A DNA stretch of 64,000 bases from sequence record MH359124. The stretch is one strand, 5' to 3'. The stretch is from Escherichia phage SF. Below the pieces are notes generated by a model. It did no database searches and was not told where the DNA came from. It saw only the letters and a program-made list of their open reading frames with translations. Below, one piece after another: positions 2,504-63,546 of this stretch. The first letter of the stretch is position 1, and each line of letters begins with the position of its first letter. The position numbers and the translations under genes are program-made.

Positions 2504-3676
2504 ATGTCTGATTTAAAATCTCGTCTGATTAAAGCTTCTACTTCTAAAATGACCGCAGACTTGACTAAGTCTAAGTTGTTTAATAATCGCGATGAAGTCC
2601 CTACTCGTATTCCGATGTTGAATATTGCATTAGGTGGTGCACTGAATGCTGGGTTGCAATCAGGCTTAACTATTTTTGCTGCTCCTTCTAAACACTTTAA
2701 AACGTTGTTTGGACTGACCATGGTTGCAGCATATATGAAGAAATATAAAGATGCAATTTGTTTGTTCTATGATTCTGAATTTGGTGCTTCAGAATCTTAT
2801 TTTCGTTCAATGGGTGTTGATTTAGACCGTGTAGTTCATACTCCGATTCAATCTGTCGAACAACTTAAAGTTGATATGACTAATCAGCTTGATGCTATCG
2901 AACGCGGTGATAAAGTTATTATCTTTATCGATTCAATCGGTAATACTGCATCTAAGAAAGAAACTGAAGATGCATTGAACGAGAAAGTCGTAGGTGATAT
3001 GTCTCGTGCTAAGGCACTTAAATCTCTTTTCCGTATTGTGACTCCTTATCTGACTATTAAAGATATTCCGTGTGTTGCAATCAACCATACAGCAATGGAA
3101 ATTGGCGGATTGTATCCTAAAGAGATTATGGGTGGTGGTACAGGTATTCTTTATTCTGCCAACACGGTATTTTTTATCTCTAAACGTCAGGTTAAAGAAG
3201 GTACAGAATTGACCGGTTATGACTTCACGTTGAAAGCAGAAAAATCTCGTACGGTTAAAGAAAAATCTACTTTCCCAATCACGGTTAATTTCGATGGTGG
3301 TATTGACCCATTCAGTGGCTTGTTAGAAATGGCAACTGAAATTGGTTTTGTAGTTAAGCCTAAAGCTGGTTGGTATGCTCGTGAATTCCTTGACGAGGAA
3401 ACAGGCGAAATGATTCGTGAAGAGAAATCATGGCGTGCTAAAGCTACTGATTGTGTAGAATTCTGGGGACCGTTGTTTAAACACAAACCTTTCCGAGATG
3501 CAATTGAAACTAAATATAAGCTAGGTGCTATCTCTTCTATTAAAGAAGTTGATGACGCTGTTAACGACCTTATTAATTGCAAAGCAACAACTAAAGTTCC
3601 GGTTAAAACTTCTGATGCTCCGTCTGCAGCAGATATAGAAAACGACCTTGACGAAATGGAAGATTTCGATGAATAA
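2504..3676 (+). CDS. uvsX: UvsX RecA-like recombinase
   Basis: 390-aa ORF; N-terminus and RecA-fold motifs match T4 UvsX from memory; correct synteny. Confidence 0.95.
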   Translation: MSDLKSRLIKASTSKMTADLTKSKLFNNRDEVPTRIPMLNIALGGALNAGLQSGLTIFAAPSKHFKTLFGLTMVAAYMKKYKDAICLFYDSEFGASESYFRSMGVDLDRVVHTPIQSVEQLKVDMTNQLDAIERGDKVIIFIDSIGNTASKKETEDALNEKVVGDMSRAKALKSLFRIVTPYLTIKDIPCVAINHTAMEIGGLYPKEIMGGGTGILYSANTVFFISKRQVKEGTELTGYDFTLKAEKSRTVKEKSTFPITVNFDGGIDPFSGLLEMATEIGFVVKPKAGWYAREFLDEETGEMIREEKSWRAKATDCVEFWGPLFKHKPFRDAIETKYKLGAISSIKEVDDAVNDLINCKATTKVPVKTSDAPSAADIENDLDEMEDFDE

Positions 3677-5925: not shown

Positions 5926-5954
5926 GTTTACTTCTCCAGTAGTTGTGTTATGAT
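5926..5954 (+). promoter_or_regulatory. Early promoter with stem-loop (PeSL-like)
   Basis: GTTTAC, 17 nt, TATGAT; -10 enclosed by IR CCAGTAGTTG/CAACTACTGG (5936..5972); drives ORF 5981. Confidence 0.65.
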
Positions 5955-5980
5955 AGACCTATCAACTACTGGAGAACAAA

Positions 5981-6298
5981 ATGAAAACCATCGACTGTAA
6001 AGCAGAATTTAAGATTTTTTATCACGGATCAAGTAGTTCAGCTAACATAGAAAATATGCTTTGTCCTCCTGAGGAAACAGGAGTTCTGTCTGAAACTGGA
6101 CGTAAGAAAAACTTGGATCGTGTATTCTTTACTGAAGATATCGGTTTAGCAAAGATTTATGCAGGACGAGCAGCACGCTCTTGTGGAGGTGAACCACGTC
6201 TCTATCGAGTAATTTCTCCGGTAGACGTAGTTCAAATGAATAATACTAAAGGTGCTACAGTTTATCACGCTGAATGGGCATTTTGCGAGGAAATATGA
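5981..6298 (+). CDS. Hypothetical protein, possible minimal ADP-ribosyltransferase (Arr-like) fold
   Basis: 105-aa ORF; N-terminal FYHGS motif and later hydrophobic Y-x-V-x-SP segment reminiscent of Arr-family; weak, unverified. Confidence 0.55.
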   Translation: MKTIDCKAEFKIFYHGSSSSANIENMLCPPEETGVLSETGRKKNLDRVFFTEDIGLAKIYAGRAARSCGGEPRLYRVISPVDVVQMNNTKGATVYHAEWAFCEEI

Positions 6299-7237: not shown

Positions 7238-7267
7238 GTTTACATTATAGATGGACTATAGTATAGT
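7238..7267 (+). promoter_or_regulatory. Early promoter (PeSL-like)
   Basis: GTTTAC, 18 nt, TATAGT inside IR GGACTA..TAGTCC; drives sp. Confidence 0.65.
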
Positions 7268-8460: not shown

Positions 8461-8928
8461 ATGGGTATTATTAACACTGCAATAGATTCTGTTTATGCAT
8501 ATAAGTTTATTCGACTAATGCAAAAACCTTTTACCGAATGGAAAGCATACGAAGCCAAAATCATCGATGAACGTGGAAGTGTTCTTAAACGTCCTTCTAC
8601 TCCAGAAGAGAAAGCGGCTTATACACCTTTTCATGCTTCAGTTCGTTCAATGAAGCGAATGATGAGCACTGTTCCAGGTCTTAATGGAATGGCCTCAATG
8701 ATGTCTGCCTGGAGTGCTGTAGCTTCACGCTATAACATTACGGAAGAACAACAGAAAGAAATATTTAAAGAACTCCCTTTATTTGAGGATATGGTTGCTG
8801 GTGATTCAGGTGGCAGCCCTCAAGCTATTGCATCAGGAACAACTACAGGTGCAGTCGTAAATAAAGGCCCAGAACAAATTCCTTCCAAGAAAAGAAAGCG
8901 AATTAAAGTAAATATTAATAAGTTGTGA
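8461..8928 (+). CDS. Hypothetical protein (61.1-like position)
   Basis: ORF track 8434..8928; ATG 8461 preceded by GGAGG. Confidence 0.6.
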   Translation: MGIINTAIDSVYAYKFIRLMQKPFTEWKAYEAKIIDERGSVLKRPSTPEEKAAYTPFHASVRSMKRMMSTVPGLNGMASMMSAWSAVASRYNITEEQQKEIFKELPLFEDMVAGDSGGSPQAIASGTTTGAVVNKGPEQIPSKKRKRIKVNINKL

Positions 8929-8967
8929 TATGATGGCCTTATTAATTTAAGGCCTCTGGAGAATACT

Positions 8968-17741: not shown

Positions 17742-18197
17742 ATGATTACTATTGGTGAAATTAAGCGTGTATCAATTGCATCCCGGTCTAAAGCCGCAGG
17801 TCGTCTGGTTGAAGTTATCGGACTTCGCACAAATGGCATGGGACGTATTAAAGAAGTTAAAGTTCGAATCATTCCTAGTTTTGGACGTCAGGATACTCAG
17901 TACGCTTACGTAAGTCCTAAATTCTTGGAAACTCCTGTGAGCGCTCATTTTGCTTCCACTGAACCTAATGTACAGTTCAAATGGGCCCTTTGCAAAGGCG
18001 TTGAATTCCAGACTGATAAAGAATTTGACTTCATCGATGAATACGGTTATCCAAGCAAAACTGATACTATGTGTGGCTTCATTAGTGACCAATGGGTTGA
18101 AGATGGTGAAAAGTTATACAATATCGTATTCTTAGGTGACTTCCGAGTTGTTAAAGAATCTGAAATCACTCGCTATGTGTCTCCTCGTAAAGCTTAA
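17742..18197 (+). CDS. Hypothetical protein, paralog family member B
   Basis: 151-aa ORF; shares the N-terminal SIASRSKAAGRLVEV motif and C-terminal GFISDQWVEDG..LYNIVF motif with 18207..18626. Confidence 0.6.
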   Translation: MITIGEIKRVSIASRSKAAGRLVEVIGLRTNGMGRIKEVKVRIIPSFGRQDTQYAYVSPKFLETPVSAHFASTEPNVQFKWALCKGVEFQTDKEFDFIDEYGYPSKTDTMCGFISDQWVEDGEKLYNIVFLGDFRVVKESEITRYVSPRKA

Positions 18198-18206
18198 GGA
18201 ATTATT

Positions 18207-18626
18207 ATGAATATTGTAAATCTCTCTACAAGTGATTACGTATATGTATCTGTTGCTTCTCGCTCTAAAGTTGCTGGGAAGTTGGTTGAAGTTCTTTCTG
18301 TAAGTTGTGGACTCTTTAGTCCACATCAAGTTAAAGTTCGTGATGCTGATGGCAACATTGGCTACGTCTCAAGCCAATTCATTGAACCAGAAGAAAAAGC
18401 GTTCAAATGGGGACTATGCAGATCGGTTTCTGTTGAAAAAGACCATGAATTCACTATTGCTGCGGCAACTGATGGAACGCCGTGGAAAACTAAGCAAATC
18501 GCCGGATTTATTAGTGACCGTTGGGTAGAAGATGGTGTTAAGCTTTATAACATCGTTTTCGCTGGACAGTTCATGGTAGTTCCTGAATTCCAAATTAAAA
18601 AATATAGCCCAGCTGCTTTCGCATAA
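18207..18626 (+). CDS. Hypothetical protein, paralog family member C
   Basis: 139-aa ORF, clear paralog of 17742..18197. Confidence 0.6.
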   Translation: MNIVNLSTSDYVYVSVASRSKVAGKLVEVLSVSCGLFSPHQVKVRDADGNIGYVSSQFIEPEEKAFKWGLCRSVSVEKDHEFTIAAATDGTPWKTKQIAGFISDRWVEDGVKLYNIVFAGQFMVVPEFQIKKYSPAAFA

Positions 18627-18630
18627 AGTT

Positions 18631-18659
18631 GTTTACTTCTCCTCTGGTTTTGATATTAT
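18631..18659 (+). promoter_or_regulatory. Early promoter (PeSL-like)
   Basis: GTTTAC, 17 nt, TATTAT flanked by IR CCTCTGGTT/AACCAGAGG; drives ORF 18686. Confidence 0.65.
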
Positions 18660-18685
18660 AACCATATCAACCAGAGGAGAATAAT

Positions 18686-19210
18686 ATGTTAGTTTACCGC
18701 GTAGAACGTAGTTTTTGTACTCAACGTGAATCATTACCAGGAATTGCTATCGAAGACGGTAAAGCCGTCAGAATTTGGGAAACCTCTTGGAATAAAGAAC
18801 CTCGTTCGCCATACGGTTGGTCGGGCACCGACAACTCTGAAGAAACATGGGAGTTCCTTGATAAGCATGGAATACTCTCAGGTAACTTCTACCATCATGG
18901 CGACAACTACAATGTCTCTAATCGTCCTACAGTAAATGAAGACAAACTCCTTGAACAAAATATCTTAAGATACTATAGAATTGAGCACACATTTGAATTG
19001 AGTGAAGATTGGGCTCAAGGGTTCTATTTTGGATTTGAAAGTGTTGACGCGGTTTATGCATGGTTTGATGACCAGGTGGATGTTGAACTCTTGAAAGCTA
19101 AAGGATACTACATAGCGGTCTATGAAGCACCTGATTTCATCCTCGGAAGTTGTCAATTAATGTTTAGACGTTCATTGGCAGAACAAGTTGATTTTATTTT
19201 GCTAAAATGA
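18686..19210 (+). CDS. Hypothetical protein
   Basis: 174-aa ORF with own promoter and AGAGGAG SD. Confidence 0.6.
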   Translation: MLVYRVERSFCTQRESLPGIAIEDGKAVRIWETSWNKEPRSPYGWSGTDNSEETWEFLDKHGILSGNFYHHGDNYNVSNRPTVNEDKLLEQNILRYYRIEHTFELSEDWAQGFYFGFESVDAVYAWFDDQVDVELLKAKGYYIAVYEAPDFILGSCQLMFRRSLAEQVDFILLK

Positions 19211-19240
19211 TGTACAACAACTATGGTCTATGATACTATA
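19210..19240 (+). promoter_or_regulatory. Early promoter candidate (PeSL-like)
   Basis: ATGTAC and TGATACTATAGACC inside IR GGTCTAT..ATAGACC; spacing non-ideal; drives ORF 19268. Confidence 0.4.
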
Positions 19241-19267
19241 GACCTATCAAAACAAGAGGAGAATATT

Positions 19268-19495
19268 ATGAAACGTCAAATCATTAAAAACGTAACTACT
19301 GATTCAAACATCGATGAGTTTGAAGATGTTCTGTTTAATCCTGATTTAGTTGTTGTACAGAAAAACTGGACCGAATTTTTATGCTACACTGAAGTGGTTT
19401 ACGTTTACGAAAAACTCGGCGATGAAATGCCTATCTATGGTATCTTCCGTGAAATCACTGAAAATGGTACAACTTATTGGAAGGAAACTTACTAA
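19268..19495 (+). CDS. Hypothetical protein
   Basis: In-frame ATG of ORF 19223..19495 after AGAGGAG. Confidence 0.5.
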
Positions 19496-19905
19496 TGGCT
19501 AATAAATTCCGCGTTAACTCATGGTACCAATTTATAGATAAACGTGCCCAAGAAGAGTTTATTAAAGACCACACTGATAATGGGATTTATGCACGACGTC
19601 TTGGCATGGAACCATTTAAAGTATTAGATGTTGACCATCTTGGACGTCCTACTAAAATTGTGACATCTACTGGCACGGTTGGATACGCAACAGGCGGTGA
19701 TATCCTTGATGAAAACTTTATCTGGCTCTCCACGAATGAATCAGAGTTCTTTGACGAAGTTGAAAATCCATATCAAGCGTCCGAAGAGCAAGATTCTGGT
19801 AAACTTGACGAATTGTCTGAATTTCCAGTGATGACGATTACTATCGAAAATAACGACCAGGCATGGTCTTTGTATCAAATGTTGAAAGCACATTTTAAGG
19901 AATAA
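19495..19905 (+). CDS. Hypothetical acidic protein
   Basis: In-frame ATG (TAATG overlap) of ORF 19477..19905. Confidence 0.5.
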
Positions 19906-19907
19906 TA

Positions 19908-20087
19908 ATGCCATTATACGACTATAAATGTCAATCTGAAGATTGTGGCCATGAATATGAAAAAATTAAAAGAATTTCTGAACGAGAAAACGATGTTTGC
20001 CCTGAATGTCATCGTTTGTCTACTCGTCGGGTTTCTGCTCCTAAACATGTGAACGGTGGTTTTTACGACTTACTTAAGAAGGGATAA
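19908..20087 (+). CDS. Small zinc-ribbon protein (CxxC...CxxC)
   Basis: 59-aa ORF below the track cutoff; two CxxC pairs (CQSEDC, CPEC). Confidence 0.5.
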   Translation: MPLYDYKCQSEDCGHEYEKIKRISERENDVCPECHRLSTRRVSAPKHVNGGFYDLLKKG

Positions 20088-20089
20088 TT

Positions 20090-20515
20090 ATGGCTTTTAA
20101 AGGTTTTGAAGTTGGTAAGAAATATCGTATTATCAAAGGACAGGAAGATAATTTCTTGAGAATTCTTAATACGACTGGTAAACGTCTTAATACTAATCTG
20201 CATACTACTTTATTGTCCAAAGATTTTATTGTGGAAGAGATGATTGGTTACGGCGTTTCGGTTATTGCCGTAGAAGCCGTAGGCGATTATGGCCGAACTA
20301 TTCATAGTATGCAAGGTGATATTCTGCTTTATGGTGCAGAATTTAAATTCTTTGAAGAAGTTCCGGAACCAGATACATCTGTCGATTTCAAAAAAGGCTC
20401 TGTAGAATTTGTTGACGGTTCGGTGATCGTATCAGGTGATGTGGTCATTACAGTTAAAAGTGAACAAGGGCGTTTGGCTGCAATTGATGCACTTCAGAAA
20501 ATTAAATTTAAATAA
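20090..20515 (+). CDS. Hypothetical protein
   Basis: 141-aa ORF followed by a terminator. Confidence 0.6.
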   Translation: MAFKGFEVGKKYRIIKGQEDNFLRILNTTGKRLNTNLHTTLLSKDFIVEEMIGYGVSVIAVEAVGDYGRTIHSMQGDILLYGAEFKFFEEVPEPDTSVDFKKGSVEFVDGSVIVSGDVVITVKSEQGRLAAIDALQKIKFK

Positions 20516-20532
20516 GGGCTTCGGCCCTTTTT
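20514..20532 (+). terminator. Rho-independent terminator upstream of gene 39
   Basis: AAGGGC-TTCG-GCCCTT then TTT. Confidence 0.6.
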
Positions 20533-20556
20533 GCTTTAGATTTCGGATGATAGAAT
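20532..20556 (+). promoter_or_regulatory. Middle promoter for gene 39
   Basis: TTGCTTTA MotA box, 12-nt spacer, -10 TAGAAT. Confidence 0.55.
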
Positions 20557-20578
20557 ACCTTCATAACGAGGAGACGAC

Positions 20579-22396
20579 ATGATTAAAAATGAAATTAAGG
20601 TATTGTCAGACGTAGAACATATTAAGAAACGTAGTGGCATGTATATTGGTTCTTCGGCCAAAGAAGCCCATGAGCGTTTTTTGTTTGGTAAATATCAACA
20701 AGTTGAATATGTTCCTGGTCTGGTTAAATTAATCGATGAGATTATTGACAACTCGGTTGATGAAGCTATTCGTACATCATTTAAGTTTGCAAATAAAATT
20801 GATGTGCAAATTAAAAATAATCAAGTTTCGGTGGAAGATAACGGACGTGGTATTCCTCAAGGTTTAGTTACTGACCAAACAGGTGAACAAATTCCTGGGC
20901 CTGTAGCAGCCTGGACTATTCCAAAGGCTGGCGGTAACTTTGGTGATGACTCTGAACGTAAGACCGGTGGTATGAACGGCGTCGGGAGTAGTTTAACTAA
21001 TATCTTCTCTACGTTGTTTACAGGCATCACGTCAGATGGCGAAAATGAAATCACTGTTAACTGTTCAAACGGAATGGAAAACAAATCATGGTCTTCTAAG
21101 AAATCTAAAGGTAAAGGCACTAAAGTAATCTTCACTCCTGATTTCTCTTCATTTGAAGAGCATAATTTATCTCAAATTTATTTAGATATTACTTTAGACC
21201 GACTTCAAACATTGGCAGTCGTTTATCCTGATATCAAGTTCACATTTAATGGTAAAAAGGTTGATGGTAATTTTAAACGATTTGCTAAACAATTTGGCGA
21301 AGATAACATCATTCAAGAAAATGATAAAGTCTCTATAGCATTCACAACATCACCAGATGGCTTCCGTCATTTAACTTATGTGAATAACATCCATACTAAA
21401 AATGGCGGTCATCACGTTGAATGTGTAATGGATGATATCTGCGAACATCTTTTGCCTGGTATTAAAAAGAAATATAAGGGTATTGAAGTCACTAAAGCTC
21501 GTGTTAAAGAATGTCTCACAATGTTGATGTTTATTAGAGACATGAGCAACATGCGTTTTGATTCTCAGACTAAAGAACGTTTAACGTCAACGTATGGCGA
21601 TATTCGTAATCATATCCAATTAGATACTAAGAAAATTGCTCAGGCACTTCTTAAAAACGAAGCCTTGATTATGCCTATTGTTGAAGCAGCATTAGCTCGT
21701 AAATTGGCAGCAGAAAAAGCTGCAGAAACTAAAGCAGCTAAAAAGGCAACTAAAGCTAAGGTTCATAAGCATATTAAAGCTAACCAATGTGGTAAAGATG
21801 CAGATACGACATTGTTTTTAACAGAAGGTGATTCTGCAATTGGTTATCTCATTGATGTTCGTGACCGTGAACTACACGGCGGATTTCCATTACGTGGTAA
21901 GGTGATGAATAGCTGGGGTATGTCATATGCTGATATGATGAAGAACAAAGAGCTCTTTGATATCTGTGCTATCACAGGTCTTATTCTTGGTGAAAAGGCA
22001 GAGAATACGAACTATCGTAATATTGCAATTATGACCGATGCCGATCATGACGGTCTTGGAAGTATTTATCCGGCTTTGCTTGCTTTCTTTAGTAATTGGC
22101 CTGAATTGTTTGAACAAGGACGTATTCGCTTTGTTAAAACGCCTGTAATTATTGCACAAATTGGCAAAACTCAAAAATGGTTTTATACTGTAACTGAGTA
22201 TGAAGAAGCTAAAGATACACTGCCTAAGCATAGTATTCGATACATCAAAGGATTGGGCTCCCTTGAAAAGTCAGAATATCGTGAAATGATTCAGAACCCT
22301 GTGTACGACGTAGTTAAACTTCCTGAAAATTGGAAAGAACTCTTTGAAATGTTGTTGGGTGATGATTCAGAACTTCGTAAAGAATGGATGTCCTAA
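20579..22396 (+). CDS. 39: DNA topoisomerase II large subunit, fused gp39+gp60 equivalent (GyrB-like)
   Basis: 605-aa ORF; GHKL ATPase N-terminus and Toprim C-terminus in one reading frame (T4 splits this into 39 and 60). Confidence 0.9.
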   Translation: MIKNEIKVLSDVEHIKKRSGMYIGSSAKEAHERFLFGKYQQVEYVPGLVKLIDEIIDNSVDEAIRTSFKFANKIDVQIKNNQVSVEDNGRGIPQGLVTDQTGEQIPGPVAAWTIPKAGGNFGDDSERKTGGMNGVGSSLTNIFSTLFTGITSDGENEITVNCSNGMENKSWSSKKSKGKGTKVIFTPDFSSFEEHNLSQIYLDITLDRLQTLAVVYPDIKFTFNGKKVDGNFKRFAKQFGEDNIIQENDKVSIAFTTSPDGFRHLTYVNNIHTKNGGHHVECVMDDICEHLLPGIKKKYKGIEVTKARVKECLTMLMFIRDMSNMRFDSQTKERLTSTYGDIRNHIQLDTKKIAQALLKNEALIMPIVEAALARKLAAEKAAETKAAKKATKAKVHKHIKANQCGKDADTTLFLTEGDSAIGYLIDVRDRELHGGFPLRGKVMNSWGMSYADMMKNKELFDICAITGLILGEKAENTNYRNIAIMTDADHDGLGSIYPALLAFFSNWPELFEQGRIRFVKTPVIIAQIGKTQKWFYTVTEYEEAKDTLPKHSIRYIKGLGSLEKSEYREMIQNPVYDVVKLPENWKELFEMLLGDDSELRKEWMS

Positions 22397-22418
22397 GCTC
22401 CTTCGGGAGCTTCATTTT
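22395..22418 (+). terminator. Rho-independent terminator after gene 39
   Basis: AAGCTCC-TTCG-GGAGCTT then CATTTT. Confidence 0.6.
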
Positions 22419-22438
22419 AATTTTAATAAGGCTTAATT

Positions 22439-23539
22439 ATGAAAGTTATGTTTATCCCATCTCGTGCAGTCCCATTTAATCCTGACCGTGTACAAGGTGG
22501 TCTTGAAGCAGTACATTTAAATGTGCTGAAATATTTAGTTTCTATTGGTGCCGATATTGATTATATCGGTTTTGATAATGACACGTTTGGTGACTGGAAA
22601 GTTACACACCACCCTGTTGGACATCTGACTAAATTCAGTCTAGGTATGAGTTATACTATGGCTCGTAAGATTGTTGAACTAGCCGGCATCCATGAATACG
22701 ATTTTGTTGTTACTATGGAACCGACTAAACTAACCGTTCAGGCAATTAAAGACGCAGGTCTCTCTAAAGTTCATAAGAATTTTATGGCAACACCATTTGA
22801 ACCTGTATCTCGTGGCATTGTTCAAATTTGGGACCAGACTATTCAAATTCATAAGAATGGTGGTAAGAGTTATGCTCCTACTAAAGCCTTCCGTGAATTT
22901 GAACGCAAATATTGTTATATGACTTCAGGTCTGACTGACAAAATTGATTATGATTATTGGCGAGCAAATCCGTTGTTTGAAGCCGAAGATTATCCGGTTA
23001 TTTGTTTGAATGAGAAACCTGAAGTTCTTCCTGCGACTGATCTGATTATTAGTGCACAACGTTATGACACTAAAATGCGTCGTACTGATGTTGCTCTTGA
23101 AGCGATTAAAGCACTAGGCGAAAATGGTGTAGGATACTGTCCAAGCAAATGGGCACCACCAGCTAAATATCCTGTTATTATTGATGCTCCACACAGTGAA
23201 ATCATGGAACGTCTTAAAACAGCTAAAGCACTTATTAATACGTGTCCTGACACAGGTACGGTAGAGAATAGTTCTATTGAAGCCATCTCTAAAGGTGTCC
23301 CTGTAATCCAGTTAGTTTTTAAGGATTATCCTCATGCGACATTCGAATACGACCCAGATACTGTGCGTGTAGAAATTGATTCCTCTACTCCTAAGAAAGA
23401 AGTAGTTGCGCTTTACACAAAAGCTGTATTAGAATTCACTGACACATACGAAGCTCGAGTTAAACGTGCTGAAGCAGTATGGAAGAAGTATAACCGAGAT
23501 GCAGTTGTTGCGATGTGGGATAAAATCTTCACAGCGTAA
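22439..23539 (+). CDS. GT-B-fold glycosyltransferase-like protein, candidate DNA sugar transferase
   Basis: 366-aa ORF; C-terminal ENSSIEAISKGVPVIQ resembles the GT4/GT-B donor-binding motif; sits where T4 has 60/mobA/rIIA.1. Confidence 0.55.
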   Translation: MKVMFIPSRAVPFNPDRVQGGLEAVHLNVLKYLVSIGADIDYIGFDNDTFGDWKVTHHPVGHLTKFSLGMSYTMARKIVELAGIHEYDFVVTMEPTKLTVQAIKDAGLSKVHKNFMATPFEPVSRGIVQIWDQTIQIHKNGGKSYAPTKAFREFERKYCYMTSGLTDKIDYDYWRANPLFEAEDYPVICLNEKPEVLPATDLIISAQRYDTKMRRTDVALEAIKALGENGVGYCPSKWAPPAKYPVIIDAPHSEIMERLKTAKALINTCPDTGTVENSSIEAISKGVPVIQLVFKDYPHATFEYDPDTVRVEIDSSTPKKEVVALYTKAVLEFTDTYEARVKRAEAVWKKYNRDAVVAMWDKIFTA

Positions 23540-23555
23540 ATCCTGAATAGCCTGA

Positions 23556-23606
23556 GGCACTATTACACATAAGATGATAGATTATATGGTCTTTAGTAAT
23601 AGTGCC
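23556..23606 (+). other. Perfect 11-bp inverted repeat with 29-nt loop
   Basis: GGCACTATTAC (23556..23566) and GTAATAGTGCC (23596..23606); loop contains GATAGATTATAT. Confidence 0.6.
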
Positions 23607-23631
23607 CTAGGAATCTACTGAAGAGAATATT

Positions 23632-23832
23632 ATGAGAACATATAACGTGGACTTGGAACTTTTTGATAAAGCTGTGCTCCGGGAATTCCGGCTTATCCAA
23701 AGGTTTTTTGATATCGAGTCAGCTGAAGCCTTTAAAGAACGCTTTAAGGAAATTCGATATAAAATACAAACCGATACAGCTACTAAAGAAGAACTTCTTG
23801 AAGTAGCAGAAATTTTTAAACGTAACTTGTGA
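23632..23832 (+). CDS. rIIA.1-like small protein
   Basis: 66-aa ORF immediately upstream of rIIA. Confidence 0.5.
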   Translation: MRTYNVDLELFDKAVLREFRLIQRFFDIESAEAFKERFKEIRYKIQTDTATKEELLEVAEIFKRNL

Positions 23833-23844
23833 TGAGAGAAAAAT

Positions 23845-26058
23845 ATGATTATTGAAACGGCTAAAGAAACGATTATCGGTTCAGGCGGTAAGAGCACAGC
23901 ATTTACTATTCAAGGCAATAGCAAAGTTTATAAGATTTTGTCTAATGACCTTTATACAAACAAAGAATTGGCTTGTGTACGTGAATTAATCACAAACTGT
24001 ATTGATGGACAAATTCTTAATGGTTGCACTGATAAGTTTATTGTTCAGGCTCCAGGTCGTTTAGACCCACGTTTTGTAGTTCGAGACTTTGGTCCTGGTA
24101 TGAGTGATTTCACCATTCGAGGTAATGACGAAGAGCCAGGAATCTATAACTCATATTTTGCTTCAACTAAAACATCGAGTAACGATTTCATTGGTGGATT
24201 CGGACTCGGTTCTAAAGCTCCACTAGCATATACTGATACGTTTAACATTACTTCTTATCATAATGGTGAAGTTCGTGGTTACGTAATCTACCAAGATGAC
24301 ACGGGTCCACAAATTAAGCCAACATTTGTAGATAAGATGGGTCCTGATGACAGGACCGGCGTTGAAGTAGTTGTGCCTGTTAACCCAGAAGATTTTGAAA
24401 AGTTCGCATCCGAAATTGCTTATGTTATGCGTCCTCTCGGCGATATTGCAGAAGTTCGTGGTGTTAAAGATATCAAATACTTCCCAGAATTTGATGATGT
24501 TTATTTAGCCAAGGAAGCTCCATGGGGTGAACGTGGTAATATCATGGCTGTTTATGGTGGTATTGTATATCCAATCGGAAGTGTTATTAAAGAACAAACA
24601 TGGATGATGACGCGATGCACTACAGCTTATATTAAATTCCCTATGGGTGAACTAGATGTAGCCCCGTCTCGTGAAGCATTGTCATTTGATAAACGTACAG
24701 TAGCAAATATCCATAAACGCGTTGCAGAAATCGATGCAAAATTATTTGCTGAAGATTCTAAGAAATGGATTGATTGTGAATATCCACGTCATGTATTCCG
24801 TGAAATCGATTCTCTTGGTTACTCTGCTCGTAAATACATGGAAAAAGCTGGTTCTAATATTGAATCACTGAAATATTCTAAAGAACAGCTAACTTATTCT
24901 GAGTTGTACAAACGTTTTAAAATGGGACCTGAATGGTGCAACCTTGGCGTTGTATATGATATCGTTTCAGACCCACGGCTTCGTCGTATTCGTGAAAGCG
25001 GAAGCTCGTCTTCAACTATTTCAATTAATAGCCTGCTAGGTATTAGTCGTAAGCATATTGATATTGTTATTGACGATGTGAAAGGCCGCGTACCAATGAT
25101 GCGTGCTCTGAACGATGCTTTGACTTCCACCGATGCATCAACACTCGTTGATAAGGTTCCTTCCGGATGGGGTAGTAGCGTATTATTCATTAACCCAGAA
25201 GACGAAGTTGCAATGAAACTTCTGGAACGATTAAAGGTTATTTTCGCTGGTGATAGCCTTAAATTTTATAAGACCTCCGAAATTCTTGCATTGGTTAAAC
25301 CGTGGATTGAAGTTAAAGAACGTTCATCACAGCCTCGTCCTAAATCACCGAGTGCTCATCGGTTCTTTAAGAATGAAAACGATGTTTGGGTATCAGAAGA
25401 TCTCTTTATTCCGGCCGGTAAAGCTGATGAGATTCAAGGTTATGTTGTAATTCGTAATCGTTCTAACGCTGAATGTCTTGACGCAGATAAAGGTTGGTTG
25501 AACTATGATTCTAGTTTCTTGACTCGTATTGCCGATTTGTCAGGTATTAAAGAGTTCACTGTAGTTCGCCCACAGATTGCTAAGAAAGTTCGTAAACTTG
25601 GTGAAGTAGAATGCTTGTTCGAAAAATCAATTAATGACTATATTATGCTAATCGATAAAGTAGATTATGATGAGTATGTATCACCAAGTCGTAGAGCACA
25701 GCCTTATTTGAATCATATTACTCGTAATGAAGAGCTTAACTTCCTCAGTAAGTATTTTAGCTCTAAGAACAAAGAAATCAGTAAAGATTTTGCAAAACTT
25801 TCAACAGTAAATAATCGTTGGGGATGGAATCGATTCGCAGGTGCTGATAACAGAGACCTGAACAGGAAGTTAGAATTGTGTGCTAAAATTTTCGATAAGC
25901 TTAAAGATAATGCTTACGATAATGATGATAAAATGGTTATTGAATTTGAAACCAATTATCATATTGTGTCAGAATACATGGGACGACGTGGTACTCTTTC
26001 TAAAGAACAGGTCGCTCAAATCGTTAAATTCATGAAGGCCGTGGAAGCGGCCAAATAA
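23845..26058 (+). CDS. rIIA: rIIA lysis inhibition / membrane integrity protein
   Basis: 737-aa ORF; size and ATPase-like N-terminus consistent with T4 rIIA; synteny with rIIB. Confidence 0.9.
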   Translation: MIIETAKETIIGSGGKSTAFTIQGNSKVYKILSNDLYTNKELACVRELITNCIDGQILNGCTDKFIVQAPGRLDPRFVVRDFGPGMSDFTIRGNDEEPGIYNSYFASTKTSSNDFIGGFGLGSKAPLAYTDTFNITSYHNGEVRGYVIYQDDTGPQIKPTFVDKMGPDDRTGVEVVVPVNPEDFEKFASEIAYVMRPLGDIAEVRGVKDIKYFPEFDDVYLAKEAPWGERGNIMAVYGGIVYPIGSVIKEQTWMMTRCTTAYIKFPMGELDVAPSREALSFDKRTVANIHKRVAEIDAKLFAEDSKKWIDCEYPRHVFREIDSLGYSARKYMEKAGSNIESLKYSKEQLTYSELYKRFKMGPEWCNLGVVYDIVSDPRLRRIRESGSSSSTISINSLLGISRKHIDIVIDDVKGRVPMMRALNDALTSTDASTLVDKVPSGWGSSVLFINPEDEVAMKLLERLKVIFAGDSLKFYKTSEILALVKPWIEVKERSSQPRPKSPSAHRFFKNENDVWVSEDLFIPAGKADEIQGYVVIRNRSNAECLDADKGWLNYDSSFLTRIADLSGIKEFTVVRPQIAKKVRKLGEVECLFEKSINDYIMLIDKVDYDEYVSPSRRAQPYLNHITRNEELNFLSKYFSSKNKEISKDFAKLSTVNNRWGWNRFAGADNRDLNRKLELCAKIFDKLKDNAYDNDDKMVIEFETNYHIVSEYMGRRGTLSKEQVAQIVKFMKAVEAAK

Positions 26059-26067
26059 GGAAACATT

Positions 26068-27003
26068 ATGTACAATATCAAATGCTTGTCCCAAGAAGAA
26101 CAGTTAGAAGCTTACAACCTGGTCAAATCAGGCAAATGGACCCGTAAAGAAATTGCCGATTACTTCGACATTTCAACAGATACTCTTCGTAAGATTGTTA
26201 AGAATTTTAAAGCTGAAGAGAAAGCAGCTAAATTTGAAGACGAAGAACAGGTCCCAGAAAATAATGAACCTATTATTACAGGTCATCGTCCAGAAATCGT
26301 ATGGAACGCGTCATCTAAATTTATTTCAATCATTGAAGGACGCGTAGCATACAATGCGACCCCATCAAGTCATGCAAATTTTGAAGAAATTAAAGCTAAT
26401 TTGGTCGCAGGAAACCTTAGTAAAGCTGTCGAACTTATTAACATCAAGAAAGCTATTACTAAGTTTGTTGACGGTAATGTTACTATTGAAGGTGGTAGTT
26501 TATTTTATCAAGGTATAGAGATTCGTTCAGGACTGGTTAATCGTATTATTGATTCCATGGAAAAAGGCGAAGACTTTAAATTCTATCTGCCGTTCCTTGA
26601 AAACCTGTTAGAAAACCCAAGCGAAAAAGCTGTACAACGTTTATTCGACTTCTTGGTTGCAAACGATATTGAAATCACTGAAGATGGGCATTTCTATGCG
26701 TGGAAAGTAGTTCGTAAAGACTATTTAGATTGCTATAGCGGTACATTTGATAACTCGCCTGGTAAAGTTGTTTCAATGCCTCGTACTCGTGTTAACGATG
26801 ATGATACTCAAACCTGCTCCCGTGGTCTACATGTTTGTGCTAAATCATATATTCGTTACTTTGGTTCTAGCTCAGATAAAGTTGTTAAGGTTAAAGTTCA
26901 TCCACGTGATGTTGTATCTATCCCAGTTGACTATGGCGATGCTAAGATGCGTACTTGTCGTTATGAAGTAATTTCAGACGTTACTGAATTATTTGCAGAA
27001 TAA
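26068..27003 (+). CDS. rIIB: rIIB protein
   Basis: 311-aa ORF (T4 rIIB 312 aa); synteny; terminator downstream. Confidence 0.9.
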   Translation: MYNIKCLSQEEQLEAYNLVKSGKWTRKEIADYFDISTDTLRKIVKNFKAEEKAAKFEDEEQVPENNEPIITGHRPEIVWNASSKFISIIEGRVAYNATPSSHANFEEIKANLVAGNLSKAVELINIKKAITKFVDGNVTIEGGSLFYQGIEIRSGLVNRIIDSMEKGEDFKFYLPFLENLLENPSEKAVQRLFDFLVANDIEITEDGHFYAWKVVRKDYLDCYSGTFDNSPGKVVSMPRTRVNDDDTQTCSRGLHVCAKSYIRYFGSSSDKVVKVKVHPRDVVSIPVDYGDAKMRTCRYEVISDVTELFAE

Positions 27004-27008
27004 TAATT

Positions 27009-27030
27009 GGGGACTTCGGTCCCCTTTTTT
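27009..27030 (+). terminator. Rho-independent terminator after rIIB
   Basis: GGGGAC-TTCG-GTCCCC then T6. Confidence 0.8.
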
Positions 27031-27044
27031 CTTTAGGGGTAATT

Positions 27045-27332
27045 ATGATTCATCCATTTGACGTATCAGAATCCAAAATTGCTAATCTTCGTGGTCATCA
27101 TAAGTGTAAATCAGTTTATTGCGCTAAATTGGTAAAACATCCTGGCGATGCACACTACGGCTGGTTAGAATGCGACGAAGTTGTTATTGAAATTCCGCCT
27201 GTAGATGCAGAATATCTTGAAGAAGGTGATCGCATTTATTTTGGCGAACTACACATCAGAGGTATCTATGGTAAAGACGAACTTGGGGCTGTTGAGACTG
27301 AAGAATCTTCCGACATTTATCCTGTCGAATGA
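27045..27332 (+). CDS. Hypothetical Cys/His-containing protein
   Basis: 95-aa ORF; HHKCKSVYC...H...C pattern; 3' end overlaps the denB candidate in another frame. Confidence 0.45.
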   Translation: MIHPFDVSESKIANLRGHHKCKSVYCAKLVKHPGDAHYGWLECDEVVIEIPPVDAEYLEEGDRIYFGELHIRGIYGKDELGAVETEESSDIYPVE

Positions 27333-27825
27333 GTTTTTGACTAGTGAAATGAAGGTGAAGATTGCTGACACTGCTCGGTATTCCCTGAGCCAAAATCCTG
27401 GCCAAAACAAAGAAGATGTAGTTCGACGTTGTAAGGTTGCGGTCTTTGCAGAGTATGTAGTAGCAAATTGGCTAGACGGATATGTTAATAAAGGTATTGA
27501 AGACGTAGAAGACCCATACACGTATGCATGGGACGTGTTAGCCCATCCCAAGTATTGCGGAATTCGTGTAGAAGTCAAGACACACCAGATAGATTCTAAA
27601 TGGATTTCGGTTACCACAGGATACAGTGGTGATTATCCGGGTGGTAATGGAATCAATATAGGGCCCTTCTTGAACCATCGAGTCGCAGACTGCATTATTA
27701 TATTAGATGTCAAAGAAACCTCACCTGACGTCTTCTCTTATTCTATAAAGTTCGTGGGAGACCATGAAGACCTAAAGAAAATCGTCCGCAAGAGCAACTA
27801 CAACGGGTGGTATCTTCATCTTTAA
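27268..27825 (+). CDS. denB: DenB endonuclease IV-like (start ambiguous: 27205, 27268 or 27350)
   Basis: ORF track 27205..27825; ATG 27268 preceded by AGAGG gives 185 aa, the T4 DenB length; position between rIIB and ndd. Confidence 0.5.
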   Translation: MVKTNLGLLRLKNLPTFILSNEFLTSEMKVKIADTARYSLSQNPGQNKEDVVRRCKVAVFAEYVVANWLDGYVNKGIEDVEDPYTYAWDVLAHPKYCGIRVEVKTHQIDSKWISVTTGYSGDYPGGNGINIGPFLNHRVADCIIILDVKETSPDVFSYSIKFVGDHEDLKKIVRKSNYNGWYLHL

Positions 27826-27837
27826 TTTCATAAAAGT

Positions 27838-27868
27838 GTTTACAACTAAGTAGGACTATGATACAGTA
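27838..27868 (+). promoter_or_regulatory. Early promoter (PeSL-like)
   Basis: GTTTAC then TAGGACTATGATACAGTAGTCCTATC palindrome; -10 degenerate; drives ORF 27894. Confidence 0.45.
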
Positions 27869-27893
27869 GTCCTATCTAAAAGAGGATAGCATC

Positions 27894-28157
27894 ATGAAAT
27901 TTAAATTTTTCTACGCAAAACATAAAGTAACAGGCGAATTTGTTTCAATGTACAACACCGCAGATGATGAAGGGATGATTTATACCCATTTAGGCCTATC
28001 TCATTGGGACTCAGACGTGCCTTATATGTCATCTGAAGCCGAAATAACTCGTCTGGTTAATGGACATATGAACGACCATTTTAGTGTTATTCTTTCTAAA
28101 GACCTTAAAGAGGTTATCAACAAAGGATATATGGAACTCGCGGAAGTTGAGATATGA
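27894..28157 (+). CDS. Hypothetical protein
   Basis: 87-aa ORF with own promoter. Confidence 0.55.
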   Translation: MKFKFFYAKHKVTGEFVSMYNTADDEGMIYTHLGLSHWDSDVPYMSSEAEITRLVNGHMNDHFSVILSKDLKEVINKGYMELAEVEI

Positions 28158-28346
28158 GCTCTAAAATGTGGATAGGAATATGGTTTCTTAGTATCCCTAT
28201 GATTTGTATAATATTTTCAATTGCATTGAGGTACTTATGAAAAATGCACTTATTGTACTAAGAACAATTTGCGATACAGGTTTTTACATCGCATGTTCGT
28301 TCACTGGAACATGGTTGGCTTTAACATATTTTAATGTAATTTAATT

Positions 28347-28376
28347 GTTTACAACACAGTAGGATTATGGTATAGT
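28347..28376 (+). promoter_or_regulatory. Early promoter (PeSL-like)
   Basis: GTTTAC, 18 nt, TATAGT inside TAGGATTATGGTATAGTAGTCCTATC; drives ORF 28405. Confidence 0.65.
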
Positions 28377-28404
28377 AGTCCTATCAAAACACGAGGAAAA
28401 CAAA

Positions 28405-28605
28405 ATGGCTAAGCTTTTTAAAGATGTTGAAATTGGTGAAAAATTTGTCCTGAATAATGGTCAGCAGCTTATTCGTGTAGCTTCTATAGCCGGACAAACT
28501 CATAACTGCATAGCCCCAACGTGTTGGACCCGATTCTTTATTGAGGATGACACCGAATGTTTAACTGTTGAAGAGCTTTTTGAACGTTCTGATATAACCG
28601 AATAA
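28405..28605 (+). CDS. Hypothetical protein
   Basis: 66-aa ORF with own promoter. Confidence 0.55.
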   Translation: MAKLFKDVEIGEKFVLNNGQQLIRVASIAGQTHNCIAPTCWTRFFIEDDTECLTVEELFERSDITE

Positions 28606-34071: not shown

Positions 34072-34731
34072 TTATTTAGCCCGCCCTAATATCCTTGCTG
34101 CTTGGTTGCATATTGCAGCCAAGCGTTCTTCATTTAACACATCCGACCCCTTATACCAATACATAGAAACAGTTCCCGCATATATGTTATCCAAATTGAA
34201 GTAAGGACAACTATACATATACGCCAGTTCTGGAGTTTTTGATTTGGTGGGTAAGAAAGCAAAATCTGTTTTAGAAGTAAAGTGAAGTCCACTTAAATGG
34301 ACCGAATATTCTGCTGTCGTTTTATCAACAGGAAATCCTCCCATAGATTTTTCAGTTACTGTGCTAGGTAACTTACCTTCATACGCAATAAGGTCGACGA
34401 AATAATTTAGATTTTTAGGTCTGAAAGAATACACCGAACTAAAATCCGCCCTTGATGTGACGTGGACTATTTGTAGTTGTTCTAAAGCCGCAGATTCAAA
34501 TCGTGTATTTCTTTCTTTTTGAATTACTTCTGTGTAAGTATCATATTTCGACCTCACGTAATAATCCATAAAAATATTCCCTTTGTACCATATTAGTGCC
34601 ATTAGGAACAAAAGAACTACAACAGCAACTCTGGAAATAAGAATATTTCCAGAGGCGTTATCTTTGAAAATGCGGTCTAGCAACCCAAATAAAATATCAC
34701 TAGGCGAAAATGATACTTTTGGTGCTGCCAT
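34072..34731 (-). CDS. t: Holin T
   Basis: 219-aa ORF; MAAPKVSFSPSDILFG..SRVAVV..L near-identical to the T4 holin; convergent with asiA. Confidence 0.9.
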   Translation of the reverse strand: MAAPKVSFSPSDILFGLLDRIFKDNASGNILISRVAVVVLLFLMALIWYKGNIFMDYYVRSKYDTYTEVIQKERNTRFESAALEQLQIVHVTSRADFSSVYSFRPKNLNYFVDLIAYEGKLPSTVTEKSMGGFPVDKTTAEYSVHLSGLHFTSKTDFAFLPTKSKTPELAYMYSCPYFNLDNIYAGTVSMYWYKGSDVLNEERLAAICNQAARILGRAK

Positions 34732-48376: not shown

Positions 48377-48405
48377 TTTATAACAAGATAGGGCTATGTT
48401 ATAGT
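48376..48405 (+). promoter_or_regulatory. Early promoter (PeSL-like)
   Basis: GTTTAT, 18 nt, TATAGT inside IR TAGGGCTAT..ATAGTAGCCCTA; drives ORF 48440. Confidence 0.6.
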
Positions 48406-48439
48406 AGCCCTATCAAATAAAAGTAAAGAGGAGAATAAA

Positions 48440-54354: not shown

Positions 54355-54765
54355 ATGAAAGATATTGCCGCCGAATATTCCTTTATTAAATATACAGAAT
54401 TGGAGCTATTAGAAGATGCAACAATTAAAACAGTTGATGTCCCTAATAAGAAAAATGTCATATACGCTATTGCTATAGATGACGAGCTTGTGTATATTGG
54501 TAAAACCAAGAATTTAAAGAAACGCATTAACTATTATCGAACAGCCATAAATCGAAAAGACCAGACTTCAGATTCAAGAAAATCACTTATGATTTTGGAT
54601 GCCTTAATGCAAGGCAAAAAGGTTGAATTCTGGGCCCGCCAATGTTTTGACCTTTCAGTCACCAACGAACTTGGTTCAATGACTATCGCAACAATGGACC
54701 TTGAAGAACCGCTTTTTATCAAAAAGTTCAACCCGCCTTGGAATATCCAACATAAGAAAAAGTAG
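54355..54765 (+). CDS. denA: DenA endonuclease II (GIY-YIG-like)
   Basis: 136-aa ORF (T4 DenA 136 aa); VYIGKTKNLKKR motif; synteny after nrdB. Confidence 0.75.
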   Translation: MKDIAAEYSFIKYTELELLEDATIKTVDVPNKKNVIYAIAIDDELVYIGKTKNLKKRINYYRTAINRKDQTSDSRKSLMILDALMQGKKVEFWARQCFDLSVTNELGSMTIATMDLEEPLFIKKFNPPWNIQHKKK

Positions 54766-54794
54766 TTTACACGCCACAAGGATTGTGGTACAAT
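54764..54794 (+). promoter_or_regulatory. Early promoter
   Basis: GTTTAC then IR CCACAAGGATTGTGG and TGGTACAAT extended -10; drives rnlA. Confidence 0.5.
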
Positions 54795-54811: not shown

Positions 54812-55945
<1,134 letters not shown>

Positions 55946-63476: not shown

Positions 63477-63505
63477 GTTTACTTTGGTACAGGTTTTGTT
63501 ATTAT
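63477..63505 (+). promoter_or_regulatory. Early promoter (PeSL-like)
   Basis: GTTTAC, 17 nt, TATTAT inside IR GTACAGG..CCTGTAC; drives ORF 63547. Confidence 0.65.
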
Positions 63506-63546
63506 AGACCTGTACCAACAAACAACTTAAACATCTGGAGAATAAA

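Follow-up and report, generated by a model that had tools for sequence, protein, structure and literature searches.

The window, a stretch of 64,000 nucleotides of Escherichia phage SF (MH359124), represents an RB69-like T-even phage of the genus Mosigvirus and is 98-99% identical to PHB12, HX01 and RB69. On its plus strand the genes are arranged in the order gene 39, a gene for a protein of 366 aa, rIIA.1, rIIA and rIIB. Gene 39 (20579-22396), which encodes a topoisomerase subunit, is followed by a terminator-like hairpin with a UUCG loop (22395-22412). The latter was detected in the terminator scan, is annotated as a terminator in phage G2469 and corresponds to the RB69 TransTerm site 3649-3662. 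It marks the upstream edge of the lineage-specific cassette that carries the 366-aa gene (22439-23539). This gene is 99% identical to RB69 ORF003c, which has been proposed as a putative hmC-arabinosyltransferase (PMC6024577); the gene product had no match in Pfam. Among the records listed by a megablast search with 22300-24000 were 16 from Acinetobacter phages, with 80-90% identity at the nucleotide level; the ORF003c homologues of these phages are about 42% identical as proteins. The next gene, rIIA.1 (23632-23832), was recognized by the Pfam family T4_RIIA1 (E = 3.7e-30). Further downstream, the N-terminal region of rIIB (gene at 26068-27003) gave sub-threshold helix-turn-helix matches (HTH_7, and HTH_23 with 22.0 bits at a cut-off of 24.6).

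The 92-nt spacer that separates the 366-aa gene from rIIA.1 accommodates a stem-loop. A first-pass annotation of the sequence had described a perfect 11-bp inverted repeat with a 29-nt loop, and this was borne out: the arms are GGCACTATTAC (23556-23566) and GTAATAGTGCC (23596-23606), and the loop spans 23567-23595. The pairing can be extended outwards to 16 nt per arm (23551-23566 and 23596-23611) by CCTGA on the left and CTAGG on the right, including one G.U and one A.C combination. The hairpin begins 12-17 nt 3' of the stop codon of the 366-aa ORF and ends 20 nt 5' of the rIIA.1 ATG at 23632; in RB69 coordinates it corresponds to 2448-2508. The centres of the two half-sites are 40 bp apart, which is about four helical turns. 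Inside the loop lies GATAGATTATAT (23576-23587), and an extended -10-like box, TGATAGATT, is present at 23575-23583. It reads TGATA-GA-TTATA, that is, the block TGATATTATA of the early promoters of this phage plus 2 nt. The SD-like sequence of rIIA.1, GAAGAGA (23620-23626), is located outside the stem and is invariant among the relatives.

As plus-strand RNA the hairpin folds with -28.6 kcal/mol (z = -4.46), a value that was reached by none of 200 shuffled sequences, and it ranks within the top 0.7% by folding energy among the 96-nt windows of the 64 kb. The minus-strand RNA folds nearly as well (-27.8 kcal/mol), and the fold as DNA is weak (-11.9 kcal/mol). The predicted structure consists of the 16-bp lower stem, a 4x2 internal loop and a small upper helix of 5+3 bp within the loop, which together would stack to about two helical turns. 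The SD of rIIA.1 is paired weakly in the minimum free energy fold (4 bp, UCCU:AGAG) and unpaired in the centroid. Five perfect inverted repeats with arms of 11 bp or more and loops no longer than 60 nt were counted in the window, against an expectation of 1.3 +/- 1.0 per 64 kb, so that the 11-mer taken alone is not significant. Three of the five reside within early promoters. Another perfect 11-bp repeat, with a 4-nt loop (CTCTGGAAATA/TATTTCCAGAG, 34629-34654), is not associated with a GTTTAC promoter. Its placement within the 92-nt spacer, the 16 bp to which it extends, its fold z-score, its rank by energy and its retention in the relatives nevertheless put the hairpin moderately above chance expectation. 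The stem-loop is real, both as a structure and in its position.

To what extent the stem-loop is conserved was read from its relatives. The junction of 161 nt was present as a single copy in all 153 records of Mosigvirus or unclassified closely related phages, at 95-100% identity. ORF003c was found at 95% identity or more in the same set of records and in Mosigvirus only; its other homologues are those in Acinetobacter phages (about 42%), which have another genomic context and no hairpin, and one in a Tegunavirus record (<60%). Throughout the 153 records the hairpin was accompanied by the 366-aa gene. An identical junction in phages that lack this gene, which the first-pass annotation had named as the observation that would speak against its proposal of an insertion boundary, was looked for, and the junction occurred only in carriers of the gene. 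A search for diverged copies yielded two junction-covering contigs in the IMG/VR DNA scan, one additional truncated contig in the protein scan and four loci in the metagenome scan, and all hairpin copies from these sources were at least 95% identical. That the hairpin travels with the ORF003c gene family was considered and rejected: in Acj61, whose homologue is 42% identical, gene 40 starts 3 nt after the gene and no hairpin follows it.

For the alignment, 18 sequences chosen partly for their divergence were combined with the IMG/VR and metagenome copies. None of the 16 distinct related sequences that include the left arm showed a change in it. Five positions in the right arm and four in the loop varied, so that every change in the stem lies in the right arm. 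Stem and loop together varied about as much as the neighbouring coding sequence. Each of the 17 full-length variants still folds (-24.6 to -35.3 kcal/mol). In AV114 and AV115 a CT to TC change in the right arm turns the A.C and the G.U into A-U and G-C, which results in a perfect 16-bp stem. In ESCO47 a G-C pair of the stem is replaced by G.U, RB69 itself has an A.C within the core, the terminal pair is lost in ECO111, NHEP36 and OCHD01, and the change in MM02 breaks one pair of the inner helix in the loop. The orientation of G.U against A.C cannot identify the strand that folds, since it is symmetric with two cases each way. None of the base pairs had changed on both sides in the aligned relatives and shuffle controls were uninformative; at 95-100% identity the relatives are too similar for the counting of covariation to be informative. 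As far as these sequences go, the divergence within Mosigvirus is too small to decide for or against selection for pairing of the stem. The change in AV114 and AV115 also removes an in-frame TAG, and the depositors of these genomes have annotated the start of rIIA.1 30 nt further upstream, at a GTG within the stem; this longer version is probably an annotation artefact.

The slot between gene 39 and rIIA.1 differs in content among T4, RB33, IME08, Mineola, myPSH1140, a Proteus phage and an Erwinia phage. In other genera it is occupied by unrelated small ORFs, in RB33 it holds a promoter alone, and in Mosigvirus it contains the terminator-like hairpin, ORF003c and the stem-loop. In both T4 and RB33, rIIA.1 is directly preceded by a complete early promoter, GTTTAC-N18-TATAAT. 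This arrangement fits a lineage-specific cassette whose downstream edge would be at or near the stem. The proposed recombination scar, which would mark the boundary of an inserted 366-aa gene, is thus consistent with the variable slot and with a junction that is confined to carriers of the gene, but it is unproven. Two rearrangements were seen near the slot. JK45 (MK962757; 1600-2351 of the extracted locus) contains a perfect tandem duplication of 503 bp, either real or an assembly artefact, which takes in the final 411 nt of ORF003c, all of the hairpin spacer and the initial 16 nt of rIIA.1, and which gives rise to two hairpin copies and a chimeric ORF of 136 aa. An origin of the second copy by hairpin-mediated exchange was rejected, as the junction lies inside codon 6 of rIIA.1 and inside ORF003c and not in the stem. 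In phi25-307 (MG589383; 600-1397 of the extracted locus) an extra ORF of 265 aa is inserted between gene 39 and ORF003c. It has NUMOD3 and weak HNH matches, is homing-endonuclease-like and occupies the position of T4 mobA. This insertion was likewise rejected as a hairpin-associated event, because the endonuclease gene is upstream of ORF003c and not at the hairpin.

The layout of the stem-loop can be compared with that of the early promoters of the phage itself. On the plus strand of the window 21 early promoters of the form GTTTAC, 17-18 nt, TGnTAnnAT are present, roughly half of which have their -10 box enclosed by an inverted repeat of 6-14 bp. In these, the left arm occupies the -35/-10 spacer directly behind GTTTAC, and the right arm lies shortly downstream of the start site. 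Clear examples are the repeats at 5932-5976 (14 bp), 18637-18681 (13 bp) and 63484-63518 (11 bp), which belong to the promoters at 5926-5985, 18631-18690 and 63477-63520. Further early promoters nested in inverted repeats were found at 7238, 27838, 57354 and 59478. Three promoters with a variant -35 box show the same layout, namely those at 8926 (cassette 8914-8946, possibly GTAAAT), 19231 (19225-19244, TGTACA) and 48397 (48387-48414, GTTTAT). At least 15 instances of this architecture were counted in the window. In the repeats at 5932-5976 and 18637-18681 the left arm is an anti-SD sequence (TTCTCC...) and the right arm contains the SD of the next gene (GGAGAA). A read-through mRNA would therefore hide the SD, whereas a promoter-proximal mRNA would not. 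Elsewhere in the window, the promoter GTTTACacgCCACAAGGATTGTGGTACAAT (54765-54794), which precedes an ORF of 374 aa (54821-55945), is nearly identical to the T4/RB33 promoter in front of rIIA.1, GTTTACTTTACCACAAGGATGTGGTATAAT; the two look like a regulatory cassette shared at different loci across genera.

The arms at 23551-23611 have no paralogue elsewhere in the window. As in the family, they bracket an extended -10-like box, TGATAGATT, and an SD and an ATG follow about 50 nt downstream. The sequence TGATA(N0-2)TTATA occurs seven times on the plus strand and not at all on the minus strand of the window; five of the seven are in promoters and the hairpin site is one of the other two. A weak -35 candidate, GAGGCA (three of six positions matched), is located upstream of the box at a spacing of 18 nt. 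GTTTAC was absent upstream, as had been noted in the first annotation, the nearest plus-strand occurrences of GTTTAC-N16-19-TAnnnT being those at 18631 and 27838. Also absent at the hairpin was an A-rich upstream tract: the 20 nt that precede it, GTAAATCCTGAATAGCCTGA, are 60% A+T, compared with A-runs in the members of the family. The best weight-matrix score for an extended -10 plus -10 in 23540-23615 was 3.3, at an unrelated position; true members of the family score 5.8 or higher, and 656 positions in the window score as well as this. The -35 block and -10 block scores at the hairpin were below those of all 21 members. The -10 box has a G at position 3 and a T at position 5, neither of which is found in any member. 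The loop measures 29 nt and the distance from the -10 box to the ATG 54 nt, against loops of 8-30 nt and distances of 32-47 nt in the family. The site was not picked up by the sigma-70 scan and is missing from the 58 published early-promoter HMM predictions for RB69, although these HMMs accepted scores down to 4.9. Moreover, TGnTAnnnT occurs 173 times on the plus strand and has a chance of about 5% to appear in any 29-nt loop. The resemblance of the hairpin to a promoter is thus partly post hoc. Given that the -35 box and the A-rich tract are lacking and that the -10 block is split by 2 nt, the hairpin would be dead or very weak as a promoter.

Other classes of elements were compared with the site. 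It does not have the properties of an intrinsic terminator, as the loop is 29 nt long and the 3' flank, CCCTAGGAATCTACTG, is devoid of a T run; it was absent from the terminator scan of the window and from the TransTerm list of RB69, which includes the gene 39 terminator. A MotA-dependent middle promoter was defined by (a/t)(a/t)(a/t)TGCTTtA at 11-13 nt upstream of TAnnnT. No TGCTT is present in 23540-23631 and no published RB69 middle promoter maps to RB69 2448-2508. The T4 late promoter TATAAATA was not matched on either strand of 18000-28500, and Rfam gave no match to 23540-23631 at E values up to 10. A hairpin that sequesters the ribosome-binding site, of the type found at T4 e, soc and 49, was not recognized, the SD and AUG of rIIA.1 being outside the stem. 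In its predicted fold the geometry of an RNase III site (16 bp plus the 5+3-bp helix) is compatible. Two further candidates were rejected: a 15-codon upstream ORF (ATG at 23574 to TGA at 23621), which has no SD and showed seven non-synonymous changes versus one synonymous change in the relatives, and an antisense promoter AGGGCA-16-TATAAT on the minus strand, which matched nine of 12 positions but only three of six in its -35 box and failed the scan criteria. TATAAT occurs 40 times on the minus strand of the window.

The site agrees with the PeSLs, the composite promoter/stem-loop cassettes of T4-like phages, in that it is intergenic and directly upstream of an ORF with an SD and a start codon at its end, contains a stable stem-loop whose arms bracket a -10-like box, and lies in a variable region beside a lineage-specific gene. 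The early promoter of such a cassette (-35 GTTTAC/TTTACW, about 17 nt, -10 TAYWAT) and the AT-rich tract upstream of the -35 box were absent. PeSLs come in numerous similar copies within one genome, between which recombination is possible; here the architecture is present in many copies in the window, and the arm sequence itself is single-copy per genome. Since position, stem-loop and variable region agree and the promoter elements do not, the site was filed as a degraded and not as a functional PeSL.

The MotA-type sites nearest to the hairpin precede gene 39 (20532) and rIIB (25911) and match the published RB69 promoters Pm:5538 and Pm:156. Pe:6863 of the published RB69 set corresponds to the early promoter near 19231. 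Between 20532 and 25911 no promoter was found in the window and none has been published for RB69, so that any read-through mRNA must cross the hairpin. Transcript maps for RB69-like phages were not found in the literature.

The structure of the hairpin, its position, its retention throughout the genus and its resemblance to the promoter family were observed directly. From these we infer its promoter ancestry and its role at the RNA level. The best explanation, which we consider about as likely to be right as wrong, is that a PeSL-type cassette bordered the lineage-specific arabinosyltransferase gene on its downstream side and that the repeat is the part of it that has survived, namely the stem-loop half. 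Of the three readings offered by the first-pass annotation, a degenerate promoter cassette, an RNase processing site and a recombination scar, the first is the best supported, by the layout, by the split TGATATTATA and by the position of the promoter in T4 and RB33; as a promoter, however, the site fails the weight matrix and was missed by the RB69 HMMs. Most likely the decayed cassette now acts only as an RNA hairpin. Gene 39, ORF003c, rIIA.1 and rIIA would be transcribed together from the early promoter near 19231 and from the MotA-type promoter at 20532, and the 16-bp stem would form in the read-through mRNA across the boundary of ORF003c and rIIA.1. There it could serve as a hairpin between cistrons that separates and stabilizes the ORF003c and rII messages, by blocking 3' exonucleases or by providing a processing point. 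Alternatively, it might be a mild attenuator; a classical intrinsic terminator it would not be.

The same RNA-level behaviour could belong to a dedicated RNA element without promoter ancestry, such as an RNase III site like T7 R1.1, an RNase E-associated site or a 3' or 5' stabilizer, in which case the -10-like loop would be coincidental. A stem of 16 bp with a 4x2 internal loop and a 5+3-bp helix of together about two turns, an intercistronic site in an operon without an internal promoter, and retention of the stem in all relatives are in agreement with this. Nevertheless, covariation was not seen, the inner helix appears unprotected as MM02 breaks one of its pairs, Rfam has no match, and the promoter-hairpin family distributed over the same genome offers a simpler account of the layout. 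We regard a dedicated element as a possibility, though a doubtful one.

A live promoter in the loop that is independent of a -35 box would start rIIA.1-rIIA transcripts near 23590 from the extended -10 TGATAGATT. Transcripts that start in the loop would carry the right arm only and hence no hairpin, and read-through transcripts would carry the full hairpin. As extended -10 promoters tolerate the phage AsiA protein, such a promoter could supply rII expression at middle times. The TGn plus TAnnnT at 23575-23583 together with GAGGCA at 18 nt, and the promoter that T4 and RB33 have at the same position, point in this direction. So does the fact that no other promoter was found or published between the middle promoters of gene 39 and rIIB, which, in combination with the predicted terminator after gene 39, would leave rIIA.1 and rIIA otherwise dependent on read-through. 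Against it stand the weight-matrix maximum of 3.3, which is below the whole family and equalled at 656 positions, the failure of the sigma-70 scan and of the RB69 HMMs to detect the site, the abundance of TGnTAnnnT on the plus strand and the two -10 bases that are foreign to the family. This makes a live promoter unlikely. A more elaborate and quite improbable version would be that in RB69-like phages promoter-in-hairpin cassettes form a general two-state switch, of which 23551-23611 would be a specialized variant with an AsiA-tolerant extended -10 and no -35 that drives rIIA.1-rIIA at middle times, while its full hairpin would mark or process the read-through of the arabinosyltransferase gene. 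If true, read-through mRNAs would contain the full stem, with the SD hidden in several cassettes, and starts internal to the stem would give mRNAs without it.

There is little reason to favour a chance or neutrally drifting palindrome without function, the apparent conservation of which would reflect that all known carriers share 95% identity or more. Chance alone should produce about 1.3 perfect repeats of 11 bp or longer in 64 kb, the hairpin is as variable as the flanking coding sequence, and mismatches are tolerated in RB69, ECO111 and NHEP36. However, the location in a 92-nt spacer, the extension to 16 bp, the z-score of -4.46, the two pairs gained in AV114 and AV115 and the match to a recurrent architecture in the same genome argue against it. 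Very improbable is a DNA-level site, be it an operator for a dimeric protein, a cruciform or a preferred point of recombination for cassette exchange: half-sites 40 bp apart at about four helical turns, the proposed role of PeSLs as recombination sites (PMC4122927, PMC2839356) and the variability of the slot across genera would suit it, but the rearrangements in JK45 and phi25-307 bypass the hairpin, its single-copy arms leave no partner for homologous exchange, and the DNA fold is weak with a spacer of 29 nt. A spacer of this length disfavours cruciform extrusion.

Under the preferred reading of a decayed cassette, the hairpin marks the downstream edge of the gene that is thought to give the RB69-like phages their arabinosyl-hmC DNA. 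The early promoter of T4 rIIA.1 then has no working counterpart in this phage, and ORF003c, rIIA.1 and rIIA are therefore probably co-transcribed by read-through. It would add an example from the RB69 group to the promoter-stem-loop cassettes that have been proposed to drive gene shuffling in T4-like phages. The value of the hairpin is modest: an RNA hairpin of this sort is an ordinary feature of T4-like genomes and a known kind of element, which offers a concrete site for the mapping of transcript ends and opens no new question.

Among known systems, the R1.1-type RNase III hairpins of phage T7 are processing sites in early polycistronic mRNA. The hairpin before rIIA.1 would resemble them as an intercistronic hairpin of about two helical turns with an internal loop in what is modelled as an early polycistronic mRNA; cleavage at it is hypothetical. 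At T4 e, soc, 49 and I-TevI a hairpin hides the ribosome-binding site in long transcripts and not in those that start inside the hairpin. A promoter inside a hairpin gives two forms of mRNA there, and the promoters at 5926 and 18631 fit this scheme; by contrast, the rIIA.1 SD and AUG are found 8-20 nt beyond the stem studied here. The promoter of rIIA.1 in T4 and RB33 has the same position directly 5' of the SD and ATG and is also associated with a hairpin. It differs in that the T4 promoter has full -35 and -10 boxes and a mini-hairpin of 5 bp (CCACA/TGTGG) inside the spacer, and the Mosigvirus and T4/RB33 elements have no detectable sequence homology beyond the SD region.

The closest comparison is with the PeSLs, which are concentrated in variable regions (Arbiol et al., 2010, PMC2839356; Comeau et al., 2014, PMC4122927) and the stem-loops of which lowered downstream expression (PMC2839356). 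RB69-like phages were not covered by these papers, and RB69 is not mentioned in PMC2839356. The hairpin of rIIA.1 differs from a PeSL by the absence of a -35 box and an A-rich tract, an off-consensus -10, an AU-rich stem, an unusually long loop of 29 nt and a single-copy arm sequence. It is like a PeSL in its intergenic position, in the SD and ATG at its end, in a stem-loop that overlaps the -10 region and in a variable slot beside a lineage-specific gene. 'Degraded (1/2)' PeSLs, in which the stem-loop is intact and the promoter box is lost, have been described (PMC4122927).
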